Below, in pieces: positions 51,001 to 57,000 of a DNA stretch of 64,000 nt. Position numbers: made by a program. Location of the stretch: assembly GCA_002299835.1 (NCBI GenBank), contig DBNT01000162.1, positions 1-64,000 on the forward strand, given 5' to 3'. The DNA comes from Nitrospiraceae bacterium UBA665 (GTDB taxonomy: Bacteria > Nitrospirota > Thermodesulfovibrionia > Thermodesulfovibrionales > Dissulfurispiraceae). Within the stretch, counting starts at the first letter, position 1, and the number at the start of each line of letters is the position of its first letter.

Positions 51001-54000
51001 TAGACATATCGTCGTCATAATGAGAGAATGCATAACCCGTAGAATATGGCGGGTCAAGATAAACTATATCAAAGGGTTTGAAATTGTTGTACCTGAGAAT
51101 TTCCCGATTAAGAACTATGGATGAATCACCTTGGATTATTATTGGTTCCATTTTCTTGTTATTTTGCTATAATTTGGCAACTAATTCAAGTTGTATAAAT
51201 TATTCTCCATACACAATTTTGCTCTGTTGGCAATACGAGGGTCTTCTGATGCCATTGACCTTTTAATATAGTCGGGATTTTTAATAAGAAAACTGCGCAT
51301 TGATACGAAAGGGTCATCCAAGTATTTTACTATCATTTCAAATTGCTCATTTGTGATATATCCTTCGCTAAGTGCTGTTTCAAATAAATGTTTATTAATT
51401 CTAAACAGAGAGAAATTGCTTATGCCGTTTTCTGAAAGGATGTTACCCCCGCCTTGTAATCGATCAACTATATTCACAGAGTGGGTGATGTTACCGCCTA
51501 TTCTCTTAATAGAAGGTATCCACGACCTTGTATAGCTTGAAGCAACTGTTATCAAATCTGCAATATGCAAGATTTTTGACCCGTCTATTGATTCGACCTT
51601 TTTGGCCGTTGTTTCAGTGACAGAATATACGCTTAAATCCTTCAGTATATATAAGACAGGCTTATCGAGTATATCGCCAATAATAGAATGAAAAAACCAG
51701 TCTCTTCTTTCGCCGCCGGATATGTAGCTAATCTGCGATATGTCAATATGCTTTTTGATTAGCTTGACGGATGCATCTATAATATCACGATATATCGGCT
51801 CCGATTTATACTGCCTGACAGTTTTAGAATAAATCAAGGGAAGAATATCCAGATTCCCTTTTGCAATTTTGTTAATTGTTTCCAGTAGAGAATCAGCCGT
51901 TTCTTTTCCGCCGAATAAATAATGCCCATTAATATAGTAAGTACCTATTAGTCCCGAAGTATACCAAAAAGGGTGGTCATGAGGAGCAACTTCTATAGCT
52001 TTTGTTGTAAACATGTGCCCGGTTAACAAGTTCAAAAAAATCTCCTTAATTAATATGTTTTGATTATAACATGTGCTAATCAGGCTTTTTTTCTCTGATT
52101 AGCACTGCTTATATTAGTTATACGGAAAAAAAAGGAAAAGTCAAGGGAATGCTATCCGTAATATTTAAATAATACGGGATGCTTGTCATCCAGTCAGTAA
52201 TATTATACAAAGAAGTTCCAATATTCACAATTTCTACTATTGTAGATTAGATATGGTCAAAAAACATAAAGAGAAAAACAGAAAAAAAAATGCAAATAAT
52301 GGCTCTAACGGCAACCACGGATATTGTTATGAGGTAATCAGCAATTGTCCGAGGTGCCGAGGGGCGATGTTTCATTATAGCTATAGAAACTATAATATTA
52401 AGGGATTAGACCATCTTTATCAATGTCTTCAATGCGCAAGAATTTATATTGAAACAATTAGTGGCTTTGCTCTTTTTGCAAGACATGTCAAAACCATACC
52501 TCCTGAATCAGTCGTTATTAATCCCTATAAAAATCAAAGGATCATATATTTCACATGACCGGATATTCACTTCGCATCCAGCTACTAAGTCCTGAAAAAA
52601 CCCTTGCACTATCTCAAGGCGAAGTTTCAAACCATAATACACTTGATGCTGTAACGCAGATGCCTGTAATGGGTGGACTTTTTGACTGCAGAATTTTCGG
52701 ACCAATCAGGGACTACACTTGCATTTGCGGCGAAATTAGAAGAGATAGGTCAAAAAAAGGACAGACATGCCCAAAGTGCAAGGTCTTAATTGACCAGAGC
52801 TTTGTCAGAAGAAGAAGAACTGGACATATTTCACTTGCCTTTCCGGTAGTGCATATATGGTATCGCAGCATTATAGCTGCTTTACTCAATATCCCCCCAA
52901 AACAACTTGAAAACATCATTTATTGCAATAGCTATATTGTTATAAAATCGAAAGACGATAATTTCAATCATGGCGACATCATAGACTATCAGTCCCTCAT
53001 GGTCAATCGTGATAAGGTTACAGCGATTACTGGCGGCGCTGCCATAAAAAAACTTCTTGAAAGATTAGACCTGCATGAATTATACAAAAATCTTAAAAAA
53101 ATGCCGCCTTCACGAAGGATCAACAGGCGGCTCAGAATAGTCAAAGACTTTATCCATTCAGACAATAAACCGGAATGGATGATCATAACTGTTTTACCTG
53201 TCCTTCCCCCTGACTTGCGTCCCGTGTTATTCCTTAGTAACGGCACAGCTGCGACTTCTGACTTAAACGACCTGTATGCAAATGTGATTTTAAAAAACAA
53301 CCGGCTGAAACGTTTTATCAGGTTTCAATCTCCAGAAATAATGTTGAACGCAGAGCGAATGCTTCTACAGAAAGCCGTAGACTGCCTTATCGATAACGGG
53401 CGGAAATACACTATTATGAATTCGTCCGGTAACAGCCCCCTGAAGTCTTTAACTAAAACAATATCGACTAAAGAGGGACGATTGAGACAGAATCTTCTCG
53501 GTAAAAGAGTTGATTACTCTGGACGGTCTCATATCACAGTGGGTCCTGATTTAAAACTTCATCAGGTTGGGCTACCTAAAACTATGGCAATGGAGCTGTT
53601 TAAGCCGTTTGTTATAAACAAGCTTATTCAAAAACAATACGCATCTTCCATGTCTCACGCTAAAGTTATTATAGAGAAAATGCTTCCCGAAGCGGTAGAG
53701 TCGCTAATGGAAACAGTAGAAGAGCATCCTGTCATGCTCAATAGGGCTCCAACCTTGCATAAATTGAGTATGCAGGCATTTGACCCCGTGATAATAGAGG
53801 GCAAAGCAATTCAACTTCATCCTCTTGTGTGCTCCGGATTTAATGCCGATTTTGACGGCGACCAGTTTGCTGTGCATGTGCCATTGTCTGTAGAATCGCA
53901 AATGGAATCGAGAGTTTTGATGTCGTCTGTAAATAACTTTTTACATCCGGCAAATGGGAAGCCGTCAATGATTCCCTCGCAGGATATAATTTTAGGCATA

Positions 54001-57000
54001 TACTGGCTTACTAAAGAAAGACGCGGAGCAATAGGCGAGGGAATGTTATTTGCGGATATAGAAGATGTCTTTGCCGCATATGACAACGACATTATTGAAG
54101 AACATGCAAAGATAAAAGTCCGAATTGACGGGCAATTTATAGAAACAACTGCAGGCAGGGTGTTATTTAGCGAGATATTACCGGAATGCGTCCCGTTTTC
54201 AGAAGTAAATAAATTATTCACGAAGAAAAATATATCCGGCATTATAGACTTGGTTTTTAAGGCAAACGGAGCAAGAGAGGTTATAGCATTTCTCGACAGA
54301 TTGAAAGATATAGGGTTTAAGTTCGCTGCAAAGTCTGGAATTTCCTTATGCATGGACGATATGCATATACCGTCAAGCAAAAAAACAATACTTCATGAAA
54401 CAGAAAAAGAGGTGAATAGCATTAACAATGACTACGAAAAAGGACTTACTTCCGATGTAGAGAGATACAATAAAATCATAGCTGCATGGACAGAGGCTAC
54501 ACGAAGTATCACTAAAGAAATGATAAATGAACTCGGCAAGAAAGACGATGTAGATATGACACAAGATGAAATTGACGAAGCCCGCCAGTTTAATAATATG
54601 TTTATGATGTCAGACTCTGGCGCCAGAGGCTCTGCAGAGCAAATAAGACAGGTGGCCGGCTTAAGAGGATTAATGTCAAAGACGACAGGTGAAATTGTCG
54701 AAATACCTATAAAATCGTCTCTTAAAGAAGGACTTACATCTCATGAGTATTTTCTTTCGTGTCACGGGGCGCGTAAGGGTAGGGCAGATGGAGCCTTAAA
54801 GACTGCTAATGCAGGTTATTTTACTATAAAGCTCGTAAGCGCGGGCAGCGATATAATTGTAGATATGCATGATTGTAAAACGATAGATGGATTAAAAATA
54901 ACAGCGCTTATGGACGAACAAGAAACACTTGAAACGCTTCATGAGCGAATAATAGGAAGATATGCTGCGGCATCTATCTCAGACCCGAAAACCGGCAGGT
55001 TAATAGTAGAACGTAACACTATTATAACAGAAAACATTGTAAAGGCTATAGCAGACGCTTCTATAGATGAGGTGATAATTCGGTCTCCTGTTGCCTGCCG
55101 TTCTTCTTCAGGTGTATGTGTTCTATGTTACGGGCATGATTTACAGACAAAAAGAGATGTAGAATTAGGAACAGCAATTGGCATAATTGCAGCCCAGTCT
55201 ATTGGGGAGCCGGGCACTCAATTGACGTTAAGAACTTTTCATTCAGGAGGCGTAGCTTCTGGAAGTAGCTCCGTGCTTTCCATAACGGCGCGTTCTTCCG
55301 GCAAGTGCGCTTTTGCTTCTGTCAAAACAATAAAAAAGGGCAATGAGGAAATCGTTGTGAGCAGGTCAGGGCGGTTTGTGTTGGAAAACAACGGCGATAT
55401 AAAACAGAAGCATGTATTGCCTTATGGCGCTGTTTTACATGTTCTTGACGGACAATATGTAAGCGCAGGCGATAAGATAGCTACAATTGATATAAATGTT
55501 ATGCCTGTCATTTCGACTGCGCAGGGAGCGATTCGATATGAAAATATAATTGAGGGCGTTTCTGTTAATACGGAAATTGACACTCAAACCGGATTAGAGC
55601 GCAAGGTCGTTATATCGTCCGGCCGTATGCCTTTTATTGCCGTCCTATCTGGTGATGGCAATTCTCATAATTACTATTTGACGGAAGGCGCGGAAATAAT
55701 AGCATCTGATGGGTCTATTGTTCAGCCAGGTGATATTATTGCAAAAAAACCTAAAGAAGCCAGTAAGAATATTGATATTACGAGCGATTTAAACCGTGTT
55801 ATTAACCTTGCAGAGGCAAGGTCTCCTATTAACCATGCTGTGCTGGCGCCAATATCCGGAATCGTTAAATTCGGAGAAATTAAGAAAAAAACAATCAAAA
55901 TAACTATAACTTCAGACGGCGGCGATGAAAAGGAAGTCGTGATAAACGATATGTCTTCTATAAATATATCTGACGGAGATTACGTTGAATCAGGGGATGT
56001 TTTAAGAGATGGAGTAATAAATCCTCACGATATTATAGCGATACATGGTTATCATGAGGCAGCTTTGTATTTATTGAATGAGATGCAGAAAGTCTATAAA
56101 AAACAAGGGGTAACGATAAACTGCAAGCACTTTGAAACAATTATTAAAAAAATGGTCGGTTATGTAGAGATAACCGACCCTGGAGATACAGATTATATAT
56201 CCGGAGATATAGTTAAAAAAATGGACTTTTTGTTGGCTAATATGAATGTAAAAGGGCAAGCAGCAACAGCGCGTTCACGCTTATTTGGGATTACGCAAGT
56301 AGCGTTATTGTCAGACAGTTTTATGGCAGCAGCATCTTTCCAGAGAGCGTCTTCTGTTTTCTCAAAAGCCGCTATACAGGGGAAAATAGATGAATTGAGC
56401 GGTATAAAGGAAAATGTAATGATAGGGCAGAAAATACCGGCAGGGACAGGATTTCATAATGGTAATATAGATGTAAATGCAAATACTTAAACTGTTGTCT
56501 TCTCATAATTTTGCCAGTGATGCGATTAAATAGGAATATAGAAAAATAATGCTTGATAAGCTTTTATCATCTACTAAATTTGCAAATGATACGCTGCAAT
56601 CGTTGTGCTATGCGATAGCTCTTCAATGCGGCGGCGTAGGCGGGTTTGTTTCTATCGCTGGTTGGGACTATTTCGATGCGGTTATCGGCTCTTATCGCGA
56701 TAAAAGGAAAGGAAATAATAAAGACGCCATAAGACTATGGGACTATCCTGATTTGGAGCGTGGGCAAGTCGCAGTAGTCAAAGGCGTGTCAATATATCAC
56801 AGTCACCACGGATGGAAAATAGGCGTAGACAGGTGCAGCATTTCTATTTCAGACTTTCAGATAGCAGCCGAAAAAAATGTAAGCATCGCATATCCTGTCT
56901 ACTATGCCTGTCTTAAAATCGAAGACATATCACAAGACAATGACCAGTTGACTGGCGCTCTTACCCGCAGACGTTTTTTCTGGGACATGAAAGCCAATAT

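Follow-up and report, generated by a model that had tools for sequence, protein, structure and literature searches.

The 64,000-nt stretch analysed here (the window, on contig C98 of the uncultured Nitrospirota genome G000) carries a second gene for the RNA polymerase beta-prime subunit, designated rpoC* (Table 1). The reading frame is free of stops, its product contains all five Rpb1 domains (1-5, Pfam) and scores 1330 bits with the TIGR02386 rpoC model (cut-off 963.5), and it is collinear with cellular beta-prime across 99% of its length. It shares 46.5% identity over 1327 columns with the sole other rpoC of the genome, which sits in an rplK-rplA-rplJ-rplL-rpoB-rpoC block on contig C154. Being outside the rpoBC operon and not single copy, rpoC* is not of the housekeeping type. 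Family-model searches found one rpoB, one rpoA and one rpoZ above cut-off in G000 and none on the element contigs C98 and C92, confirming the earlier note, which had described an intact, divergent 1311-aa RpoC with no duplicate of these genes. The single-chain polymerase type of YonO and NCgl1702 was rejected, since the product does not hold both double-psi barrels in one chain. A family search with the 101-aa ORF in front of rpoC* gave no match.

Table 1. Features of the window, with positions counted from its first nucleotide.
Feature	Position	Strand	Remarks
Orphan RNA polymerase beta-prime (rpoC*), 1311 aa	52555..56490	+	stop-free ORF, Pfam, TIGR02386
101-aa ORF, two CxxC pairs	52253..52558	+	overlaps rpoC* start (ATGA)
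Rewritten zipper, residues 26-37	52630..52665	+	E. coli K40, Y46, R47 lost in 19/19
N-terminal zinc site, cysteines 56, 58, 72, 75	52720..52779	+	invariant in 21/21 rows
Lid tip T231 (E. coli R259T)	53245..53247	+	fixed in 19/19
Catalytic NADFDGD, residues 430-436	53842..53862	+	invariant
Bridge helix R743, G746 (E. coli L783R, T786G)	54781..54792	+	fixed in 19/19
Trigger loop H896, S897	55240..55245	+	E. coli H936 kept 19/19; I937S 17/19
ParB_N + HTH protein	455..1912	+	G008 homologue adjoins integrase; not parB of rpoC* cassette
Mating-pair block: TrbI/TraB-like, lytic transglycosylase, TIGR03750-like, TraG_N	7231..16647	+	domain models
TraU, VirB4/TraC-like ATPase, type IV coupling protein	23229..29202	+	domain models
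Type IV pilus block: secretin, PilB/PilT-type ATPases, T2SSF, N-methyl pilins, PilP-like	29253..42992	+	domain models
GTAATATTA	7215..7223	+	before small-membrane-protein/TrbI transfer block, ORF at 7231
GTAATATTA	19161..19169	+	before ORF 19180
GTAATATTA	21002..21010	+	no ORF >42 aa behind
GTAATATTA	23216..23224	+	before TraU-VirB4-coupling protein block
GTAATATTA	29120..29128	+	133 nt before secretin gene (pilus block)
GTAATATTA	31624..31632	+	within ORF 30834-31793; 99 nt before ORF 31723
GTAATATTA	38265..38273	+	before ORF 38287
GTAATATTA	43011..43019	+	before ORF 43167
GTAATATTA, promoter-like motif	52197..52205	+	56 nt before 101-aa ORF/rpoC* operon
GTAATATTA	59259..59267	+	before ORF 59331 and response-regulator/HD gene

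In agreement with the earlier note, a database contig of 182,086 bp encodes each of the beta-prime*, ParM and Rep-like proteins of C98 as well as the C92 sigma factor, and rpoC* is present in runs of three studies besides the possible source; a 3,809-nt contig from run X3 spans 52537-56323 with zero differing letters. The claim that host repeats are nearly absent from C92/C98 has to be qualified, as C98 opens with an 85-bp repeat that at least 11 host contigs also contain.

Elements with rpoC* measure roughly 180-190 kb and reside in uncultured Nitrospirota. In the relative G008, a complete element of ~189 kb is bounded by tRNA-Pro on one side and an att copy on the other, with host genes as its flanks, and its integrase, att repeats at a tRNA and conjugation genes make it an integrative and conjugative element (ICE); att copies also occur in G002. 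C92 and C98 (164 of ~182 kb, about 18 kb missing) yielded no integrase or att site and carry ParM, a 10-bp array, iteron-like 12-bp repeats and a Rep-like gene. "Megaplasmid" may thus fit these two contigs, whereas the relatives are chromosomally integrated, and we therefore refer to the family as ICE/plasmid. The proposed F-type conjugative element does show TraU, VirB4-like, TraG and TrbI-like genes, but all fall below the NCBIfam cut-offs and are remote from the canonical F-type models. C98 gives only weak matches to TraB, TraC/VirB4, TraU and TraG_N, and its transfer genes reach 26-29% (coupling protein 41%) against the F-type set of G008, which has TraEKBVC-FHGNU-TrbC above cut-offs.

Beyond G000, the rpoC* family was found in 12 other GTDB genomes (10 Nitrospirota and 2 Bacteroidales bins), all of its records being metagenome bins. 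The family counts 19 loci, and the 19 full-length proteins analysed are only 44-59% alike among each other and 43-50% like cellular RpoC. The clade recognised earlier is indeed a distinct family, but its count of three relatives was too low, P0007, P0049 and P0090 being already in the same match list. rpoC* never adjoins rpoB, and family models detected no rpoB, rpoA or rpoZ on the element contigs of five out of five genomes. One of these is the complete att-to-att element of G008, which at family level answers the worry that the missing 18 kb might hold an rpoB. Support for a mobile element that has beta-prime as its only core subunit therefore extends to the whole family; that it swaps one core subunit of the host enzyme, as the earlier note put it, we infer. 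The gene is under purifying selection (dN/dS 0.085-0.172 in eight of eight pairs), equal to that on parB and rep (0.05-0.15) and at 4-8 times the value of chromosomal rpoC.

We compared 444 columns invariant in 29 chromosomal proteins with the 19 family members. At least 18 of the 19 have lost 42 of these columns, with the highest losses in the lid (6/15) and zipper (3/9) and low losses in the catalytic barrel (3/71) and first trigger helix (0/20). The catalytic centre is intact: both cysteine sets of the zinc sites, NADFDGD and the trigger helix are retained, and N458, D460/462/464, R425, Q929, R933, H936 and T790 (E. coli numbering) are kept in all 19. Residues facing the promoter or the secondary channel are altered, with family-wide changes in zipper, lid, clamp head (including a four-residue deletion), switches and bridge helix. 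Conserved catalytic motifs beside a reshaped N-terminal zipper and clamp region had been noted before, and the alignment bears out both. In E. coli, R259 is described as contacting and steering the template -10 strand, R47 as contacting upstream DNA and the zipper as reading the spacer. The window's own beta-prime* has 27 further changes at columns most relatives keep.

Most long element contigs also encode a short, RpoD-derived sigma factor with regions 2, 3.2 and 4, a shortened region 3 and a changed core-binding QE in region 2.2. Two sigma-70 genes had been assigned to the window's element; C92:24965-25678 has regions 2 and 4, whereas C92:58938-59624 combines HTH_3 with region 4 and lacks region 2. 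Using a profile built from the five sigma-positive relatives, we located the factor on the rpoC* contig in G001, G002, G004, G007 and G008, which with C92 makes six elements. It was not found in G003 and G013, which both hold only part of the element, nor at the syntenic place in four of four loci of one subclade (L010, L019, L024, L120), which still has rpoC* and a motif variant.

This motif, GTAATATTA, is found ten times in the window, always on the plus strand, against 1.07 expected (0 of 100 shuffles as high), and its oriented GTAATAT core precedes transfer, partition and rpoC* operons. The best -35 match at these sites is 2-4/6, whereas five of six cargo promoters reach 5/6. In a search of the relatives made after the motif had been detected in the window, TAATA[TC] preceded parB in all 11 loci, at a distance of 33-56 nt (chance 3-9% each; about six independent lineages). 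The motif occupies 10/44 upstream gaps of the G008 element versus 1/65 in the flanks (p=4e-4), and the sense:antisense ratio is 33:7 across five elements and 21:17 in the G000 host. In G002 (7/54 vs 1/26, p=0.19) and G003 (1/34 vs 2/111), by comparison, the motif showed no significant enrichment. Since TAATAT also agrees with an ordinary sigma-70 -10 box at its key positions, and a winged-helix dimer could bind the palindrome TAATATTA, the motif need not be read by a hybrid enzyme.

Judging from these sequence data, we consider it probable that a hybrid core transcribes the maintenance and transfer operons of the element from GTAATAT. Beta-prime* would join host alpha, beta and omega, and the resulting polymerase would start at GTAATAT as a -10-only promoter. 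Its initiation partner may be the element's sigma with reduced region 3 where present, and in sigma-less elements a host sigma helped by the pair of ParB and winged-helix protein. As GTAATAT also precedes rpoC* itself, a positive loop on this gene is conceivable, and the hybrid core may be less responsive to DksA/ppGpp of the host, because in E. coli the pocket for the DksA tip is lined by L783 and T786. A bolder version is possible, though we hold it only tentatively: a second polymerase made by subunit swapping, in which beta-prime* and a co-evolved, region-3-less sigma use a private -10-only code and escape DksA/ppGpp in both Nitrospirota and Bacteroidales, the same trick being used by phages with a lone beta-prime.

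Alternatively, rpoC* could serve replication, with the Rep-like protein recruiting the hybrid enzyme to an origin for an RNA primer or R-loop of the excised element, much as RNA polymerase primes ColE1 or M13 replication. In the relatives, rpoC* is the last gene of a parB - Rep-like - rpoC* operon and is linked most tightly to these two genes, not to sigma: the Rep-like gene lies directly 5' of rpoC* in 14 of 14 loci whose upstream gene is complete, and in 13 of these it is itself preceded by parB. Among 11 GTDB Rep-like loci, rpoC* follows in nine, the contig ends in one and rpoC* is absent in one, and the Rep-like family, at 21 clusters, matches the rpoC* family in its small size. Short direct repeats before parB or ParM and the loss of the basic residues R259, K332 and R1330 in the lid and facing downstream DNA also agree with this reading. 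However, the window's Rep-like gene is 17 kb away from rpoC*, behind ParM, the elements encode their own DnaG primase, DnaN, SSB and helicases, and the motif stands in front of many operons instead of a single origin. The Rep-like protein itself is a Replic_Relax protein (PF13814) with a winged helix and a PD-(D/E)xK-like domain (6 of 12 rows above the Pfam cut-off; the protein of the window's element scores 24.9 against a cut-off of 25.3), and its structure model (pLDDT 91) has a PadR-like N-domain, with FokI/MspJI among the fold matches. Such proteins can also be MOB_C relaxases, and no further relaxase was identified on the elements. A replication role is thus unlikely.

About as improbable is that the swap alters regulation and not promoter choice, a core deaf to DksA/ppGpp (perhaps Gre) keeping element and host housekeeping-type promoters on in starvation. 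The L783R and T786G changes, with this flank, occur at only 11 GTDB loci, every one an orphan rpoC*, and two host genes encode DksA-like proteins with tip-like motifs. In E. coli, DksA A76 is described as occupying a cavity whose walls include L783 and T786, and F-plasmid TraR as reaching the same channel (bioRxiv 10.1101/188680). Yet the DksA-docking rim residues E677, N680 and K681 are mostly retained, and the rebuilt zipper, lid and clamp helices, the changed sigma and the motif would be left unexplained. Because T786 reportedly also touches the incoming NTP base and T786A lowers activity, the altered bridge helix may instead serve to tune catalysis. Catalysis could even be crippled by the changes at T786, I937, switch 2 and switch 1/5, which would leave a dominant-negative decoy that soaks up host alpha2-beta or sigma and, while making little RNA itself, dampens phage take-over or host transcription; the invariance of all checked catalytic and NTP-binding residues despite such low family identity, in a protein kept at full length, makes this very improbable. 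We give still less credit to a self-sufficient polymerase, like that of YerA41/Carin-5-type phages with their joint sigma, beta-prime and beta, in which the beta partner would have diverged beyond detection. These phages share the clamp-head deletion, and the window's element is incomplete, but a PF00562 search (E up to 1) gave one rpoB per genome and none on element contigs, complete G008 included, and an undetectable beta would be odd because beta-prime* remains so similar to cellular proteins. A mis-binned foreign chromosome piece or slowly decaying captured rpoC, which the bin-only records, the C-terminal frameshift in L010, the fragmented gene in L018 and the raised dN/dS might suggest, is largely refuted by the att-bounded island, fixed synapomorphies, parB/rep-like selection, distance from rpoB, identical DNA in other studies and the 77-95% likeness of C92/C98 genes to host genes.

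Bacteria are generally credited with a single core RNA polymerase that sigmas and accessory factors redirect, and mobile elements are held either to borrow the host polymerase whole or to bring along a complete enzyme. If the hybrid-core reading is true, subunit exchange would be a third route to specialised polymerases, parallel to plant Pol IV and V; we did not find this proposed strategy of mobile elements, a lone beta-prime combined with host subunits, in print. New relative to the earlier note are the promoter-like motif, the changes in the bridge helix and the conserved parB-Rep-rpoC* operon. In this family, nature has mutated residues regarded as invariant (R259, L783, T786, L796, Y46, R47), so that what they do in opening promoters, binding NTPs and responding to DksA becomes directly testable, and rpoC* may offer an orthogonal transcription part. 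Since these paralogues pass the cut-off of the single-copy marker rpoC, trees and estimates of bin quality in Nitrospirota can be skewed by them.

Specialised copies of one large subunit sharing the rest of the enzyme are known from Nocardia rpoB2 and Nonomuraea rpoB(R), duplicated rpoB genes of actinomycetes, and from plant Pol IV and Pol V, which have their own largest subunits. These are chromosomal or nuclear, and the bacterial cases concern beta and stay close to the native copy, whereas rpoC* is a mobile beta-prime, about 55% diverged. T4 gp55 is a sigma with a -10-only late promoter. Group 2 jumbo phage sigmas are described as redirecting the host core (PMC7824862). Like both, rpoC* elements would combine their own sigma, a -35-less motif of their own and the host core; T4-type systems modify the host enzyme without replacing beta-prime, whereas rpoC* elements also supply a catalytic core subunit. 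Double-psi-barrel subunits are likewise carried by mobile elements in the phiKZ/AR9 polymerases (PMC7824862) and the sigma-beta-prime-beta operons of YerA41/Carin-5, and Carin-5 and GN1 share the clamp-head deletion. Jumbo-phage polymerases encode beta plus beta-prime, whereas the rpoC* family has beta-prime alone, far closer to cellular RpoC; a self-sufficient enzyme of this kind is very improbable for the rpoC* element, as PF00562 found no cognate beta. According to database annotation, phages RHph_TM30, Va2, EP_H11 and RP13 also have a beta-prime without a PF00562 match (4/4 genomes), with the same four-residue deletion and changes at the L783/T786 positions. They differ in being of lytic type, at about 30% identity or less and on their own long branch; no sigma was among the neighbouring genes tested, and we found no paper on their polymerase. 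BisDC of ICEclc, a ParB-type clamp tied to activation of transfer promoters, resembles the rpoC* ICE but, as described in bioRxiv 10.1101/2024.09.16.613209, comes without a polymerase subunit, and an activator role of the pair of ParB and winged-helix protein in rpoC* elements is putative. Finally, F-plasmid TraR lets a conjugative element act at the secondary channel of the host polymerase, as rpoC* would; TraR is described as a small ligand (bioRxiv 10.1101/188680), whereas in rpoC* the pocket itself is rebuilt within a putative replacement subunit.

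rpoC* is an unbroken 1311-aa ORF whose product contains all five Rpb1 domains and scores above the TIGR02386 cut-off. The host genome (2.02 Mb, 96.9% complete) holds only one other rpoC, located on contig C154 inside the usual ribosomal-protein/rpoBC block, with 46.5% identity to the rpoC* product. Family-model searches detected rpoB, rpoA and rpoZ once each in the genome and none of them on C92 and C98, the two contigs of the element carrying rpoC*, which bears out the earlier note's description of an intact RpoC standing alone on its element. According to the named matches of a protein search, the host RpoC is of a type found among Thermodesulfovibrionales. 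The apparent lack of GreA in the host was rejected as an assembly gap, GreA being present in 148 of 151 genomes of the class. Conjugation, type IV pilus and restriction-modification genes and signalling cargo surround rpoC*; the 101-aa ORF upstream of it matched no family. Judged by its sequence, rpoC* encodes a beta-prime subunit, but is neither a housekeeping rpoC nor part of a self-sufficient phage-type enzyme.

A protein search returned three relatives at 57-59% identity and one at 50%, followed by chromosomal proteins at 49% or less. A bridge-helix motif exclusive to these five proteins (the rpoC* product and four relatives) was scanned as a DNA pattern and found at 11 loci in 10 GTDB genomes and at six in metagenomes, with zero in IMG/VR; an independent lid-motif scan gave nine GTDB loci, seven previously known and two new. 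Family members are encoded at all 19 loci, so that the three relatives named previously are real but belong to a larger family. Twelve GTDB genomes carry it (10 Nitrospirota and two Bacteroidales bins). In a quick tree, a 0.61 branch with an SH-aLRT of 100 separates nineteen full-length family proteins from the others, in agreement with the clade proposed before; the protein records P0049 and P0090 were counted as members on the basis of this tree and the invariant-column comparison. As to the donor lineage, the best BLAST matches of beta-prime* are Thermodesulfovibrionales proteins. A clade of the family with Nitrospirota was neither rejected nor demonstrated (AU test, p=0.27), and the trees support no particular join to chromosomal RpoC. 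PLSDB contains 70 matching records. Among the best 40 of these, four examined records carry an annotated rpoB directly upstream and a fifth, without annotation, is 2.1 Mb in size, so they look like chromosome pieces; none of the five was demonstrated to be a family member.

Residues are numbered as in E. coli beta-prime, and invariant columns were defined on 29 chromosomal proteins. Of the 444 such columns, 230 stay conserved in 18 or more of the 19 members; at 42 the invariant residue has gone in 18 or more. As the earlier note had stated for beta-prime*, the catalytic D460, D462 and D464, the zinc cysteines and the trigger-loop residues Q929, R933 and H936 are kept, here in all members, together with R425, N458, T790, K334, R339, R346 and R352. 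The reshaping of zipper and clamp is likewise seen across the family: zipper residues K40, Y46 and R47 are lost or replaced, and four residues are deleted at 117-120. The lid shows R259T and a changed F260, and K332, Q335 and F338 of switch 2 are lost or replaced, as is E1327. The bridge helix carries L783R, T786G and L796F. I937S occurs in 17 of 19 members and G1136S, a fast allele in E. coli, in only four of 19. L120, K332, E1327 and R1330 presumably contact DNA; a literature search found no papers on these four. In published work, R259 is described as steering the template strand and R47 as touching upstream DNA (PMC5386594); a second study has R259 in contact with the template -10 element and the spacer read by the zipper (10.1101/2020.01.02.893370). 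Published work also states that L783 and T786 line a cavity accommodating DksA A76 (10.1101/188680), that T786 is in contact with the base of the incoming NTP and I937 with the F-loop (PMC13198411), and that L783A is silent and T786A reduces activity (PMC3077646). The kept catalytic residues and the lost zipper, lid, switch and bridge residues suggest that catalysis is kept and that the promoter-facing and secondary-channel surfaces are rebuilt.

Two sigma-70 genes had been credited to the element, of which one holds up. Its product has regions 2, 3.2 and 4 and a shortened region 3, with SV replacing the QE conserved in both group-1/2 sigmas of the host; the second gene lacks region 2. This second gene fuses HTH_3 to an RpoD-like region 4 (59% to that of host RpoD), and its product is possibly a sigma-4 mimic or appropriator. 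Sigma homologues are encoded on the rpoC* contig of five relatives, and the search profile built from them gave leave-one-out values of 1e-25 to 1e-37. At the syntenic place the sigma is absent in the subclade L010/L019/L024/L120, and none was found in the partial elements of bins G003 and G013.

The promoter-like motif GTAATAT was discovered in the window's element and afterwards tested in relatives. TAATATTA occurs in 13 of 112 upstream regions of element genes compared with 12 of 1052 of host genes. The window contains 10 GTAATATTA sites, all on the + strand (1.07 expected), and nine of them are positioned 13-156 nt before a + strand ORF, including the transfer, pilus and rpoC* operons; a further site precedes the ParM-Rep operon. 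These sites have no -35 match, whereas five of six cargo promoters do. Among relatives, the motif precedes parB in 11/11 loci. The G008 element shows an enrichment (p=4e-4, to which lower GC may contribute); in G002 and G003 it is not significant. The strand bias of the motif is 33:7 over five elements and 15:2 in G008, G001 and G003 alone. The motif could act either as a -10-only promoter or as an operator. Separately, copies of a canonical promoter module would drive cargo genes that run opposite to the backbone, and many of these copies stand back to back with a GTAATATTA site.

We consider it probable, though well short of certain, that beta-prime* would join host alpha2-beta-omega and that the hybrid enzyme would read the element's operons from GTAATAT, using the short sigma in those elements that have it and under less DksA/ppGpp control.

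Primer synthesis with the Rep-like protein, a Replic_Relax-like winged-helix protein, is an unlikely alternative on which the gene neighbourhood bears. The gene directly upstream of rpoC* is Replic_Relax-like in all 14 relatives' loci holding that gene whole, with parB before it in 13; the idea that this second gene upstream encodes a sigma was rejected, the gene being parB. A search that started from the Rep-like gene yielded 11 GTDB loci, with rpoC* next in nine, a contig end in one and no rpoC* in one. At this last locus (L111, bin G012) the Rep-like gene is fused to a parB N-terminal remnant and followed by an IS, as in a decayed or rpoC*-less relative; rpoC* was not found anywhere in the G012 genome. 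The predicted structure of the Rep-like protein (pLDDT 91) combines a PadR-like winged helix with a PD..ExD domain.

That beta-prime* serves only for escape from regulation, in a host with two DksA-like genes, is quite unlikely, and a decoy function is improbable. Still less probable is a hidden beta partner. The elements share a backbone of sigma, DEAD helicase, NrdJ, SbcCD-like pair, DnaN, SSB, RadC, DnaG, large methylase-helicase and transfer genes. In G008 this backbone sits within a low-GC island on a 438-kb chromosomal contig. The stretch from tRNA-Pro(ggg), at 298.4 kb, to a second copy of that tRNA's 3' end, at 109.2 kb, also includes an integrase and the whole set of F-type transfer genes, and is a complete ICE of ~189 kb. 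Family-model searches found no rpoB, rpoA or rpoZ on this contig, which speaks, for the family as a whole, against the earlier worry that an rpoB lies on the missing ~18 kb of the window's element. G002 also has two att copies. Some bins are incomplete: G004 gives no match for rpoB, G006 just pieces at contig ends, and G007 lacks a chromosomal rpoC; G005 holds a second piece of rpoB, of ordinary appearance, and two fragments of rpoC*.

A relic or artefact is scarcely credible. The same DNA was recovered in three other studies, one contig spanning 52537-56323 without any differing letter, as had been claimed. The dN/dS of rpoC* (0.085-0.172, eight pairs) resembles that of neighbouring parB and rep (0.05-0.15) and exceeds that of chromosomal rpoC (0.022-0.025), which suggests relaxed or adaptive evolution, yet under selection. 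In four loci of one subclade (L008, L009, L011, L016), rpoC* is directly followed by a gene for an RseP-like M50 protease; such proteases release sigma factors.

Each of four proteins tested from C98 and C92 is also recorded on a 182,086-bp contig, consistent with the earlier note; together C98 and C92 amount to 164,063 bp. Several of their genes are 77-95% like host chromosomal genes and a terminal repeat is common to element and host contigs; both observations link the element to this host's lineage. Neither integrase nor att was found on the 164,063 bp of C92/C98, out of the 182,086-bp contig's length, so a plasmid state is plausible. The likeness of the pilB, prepilin peptidase and argB copies to host genes points to recent capture from the host lineage. 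Together with NrdJ and dUTPase, PyrE-like and PyrF form the element's own nucleotide supply kit.

A partial element also lies at the end of a 470-kb G003 contig bearing Bacteroidota T9SS tails; its rpoC* C-terminus and nrdJ are broken. Cross-phylum transfer of a Nitrospirota-type element into Bacteroidales is possible. A chimeric contig join may be the alternative, but a second Bacteroidales bin contains the same subclade (L120).

Coordinates of features on the element and in its relatives
Feature	Location	Observation
rpoC*	window 52555-56490 (+)	
EcoRI-like restriction-modification pair	window 46272-48051	beside rpoC*
Second methylase-nuclease-like pair	window 49525-51151	beside rpoC*
PyrE-like gene	window 51181-52035	
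PyrF gene	C92:41983-42906	
TTGACT-N16/17-TATAA modules	window minus strand at 19112, 20953, 45510, 49447, 52125; C98 76.8 kb	repeated
pilB, prepilin peptidase, argB copies	C98:68953-72749	91-95% like host genes
Rep-like gene	C98:73226-73993	behind ParM gene and 10-bp array; 17 kb from rpoC*
10-bp array	C98:75447-75660, 75813-75905, 77325-77404, together with 12-bp repeats (L002)	~20 copies, before 115-aa ORF and ParM; ParMRC-like centromere
12-bp iteron-like repeats	C98:75447-75660, 75813-75905, 77325-77404, together with 10-bp array (L002)	two clusters
Short sigma gene	C92:24965-25678	
HTH_3-region 4 fusion gene	C92:58938-59624	
Group II intron RT	C92 48.6-50.3 kb	
Type I-D-like CRISPR-Cas and array	C92 64.3-76.2 kb	
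Islands in tandem at tRNA-Pro(ggg)	G008:C2 75.0, 103.0, 109.2, 298.4 kb; G002:C34 211.1, 248.0 kb	each bounded by tRNA 3'-end copy
PRTRC-type ThiF/JAB/E2 ubiquitin-like module	G008:C2 166-171 kb (L053)	in element backbone
Nitrospirota-type element	G003:C9 ~396-470 kb (L081-L084)	Shine-Dalgarno-rich genes; end of Bacteroidales chromosomal contig

No report of the beta-prime* family, or of a mobile element exchanging one polymerase subunit as the hybrid enzyme that we favour would imply, was found in searches of mainly open-access literature. The consulted passages of a jumbo-phage survey cover complete phage enzymes, phage sigmas and factors that modify the host enzyme, with no lone cellular-type beta-prime among them (PMC7824862). 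Four phage genomes, NC_070966 (L086), MW073017 (L121), OP688485 (L122) and LC554890 (L123), each encode a beta-prime that has the same clamp-head deletion (117-120) as the family, and none of the four gives a match to beta. Their bridge helix is altered as well, and in two of the four the beta-prime gene is split in two, in reversed order in EP_H11. A quick tree, in which branches are long, attaches phage beta-primes to the stem of the family; we do not take this as common origin. Phages that encode beta also carry the clamp-head deletion, so it marks mobile beta-primes rather than lone ones.
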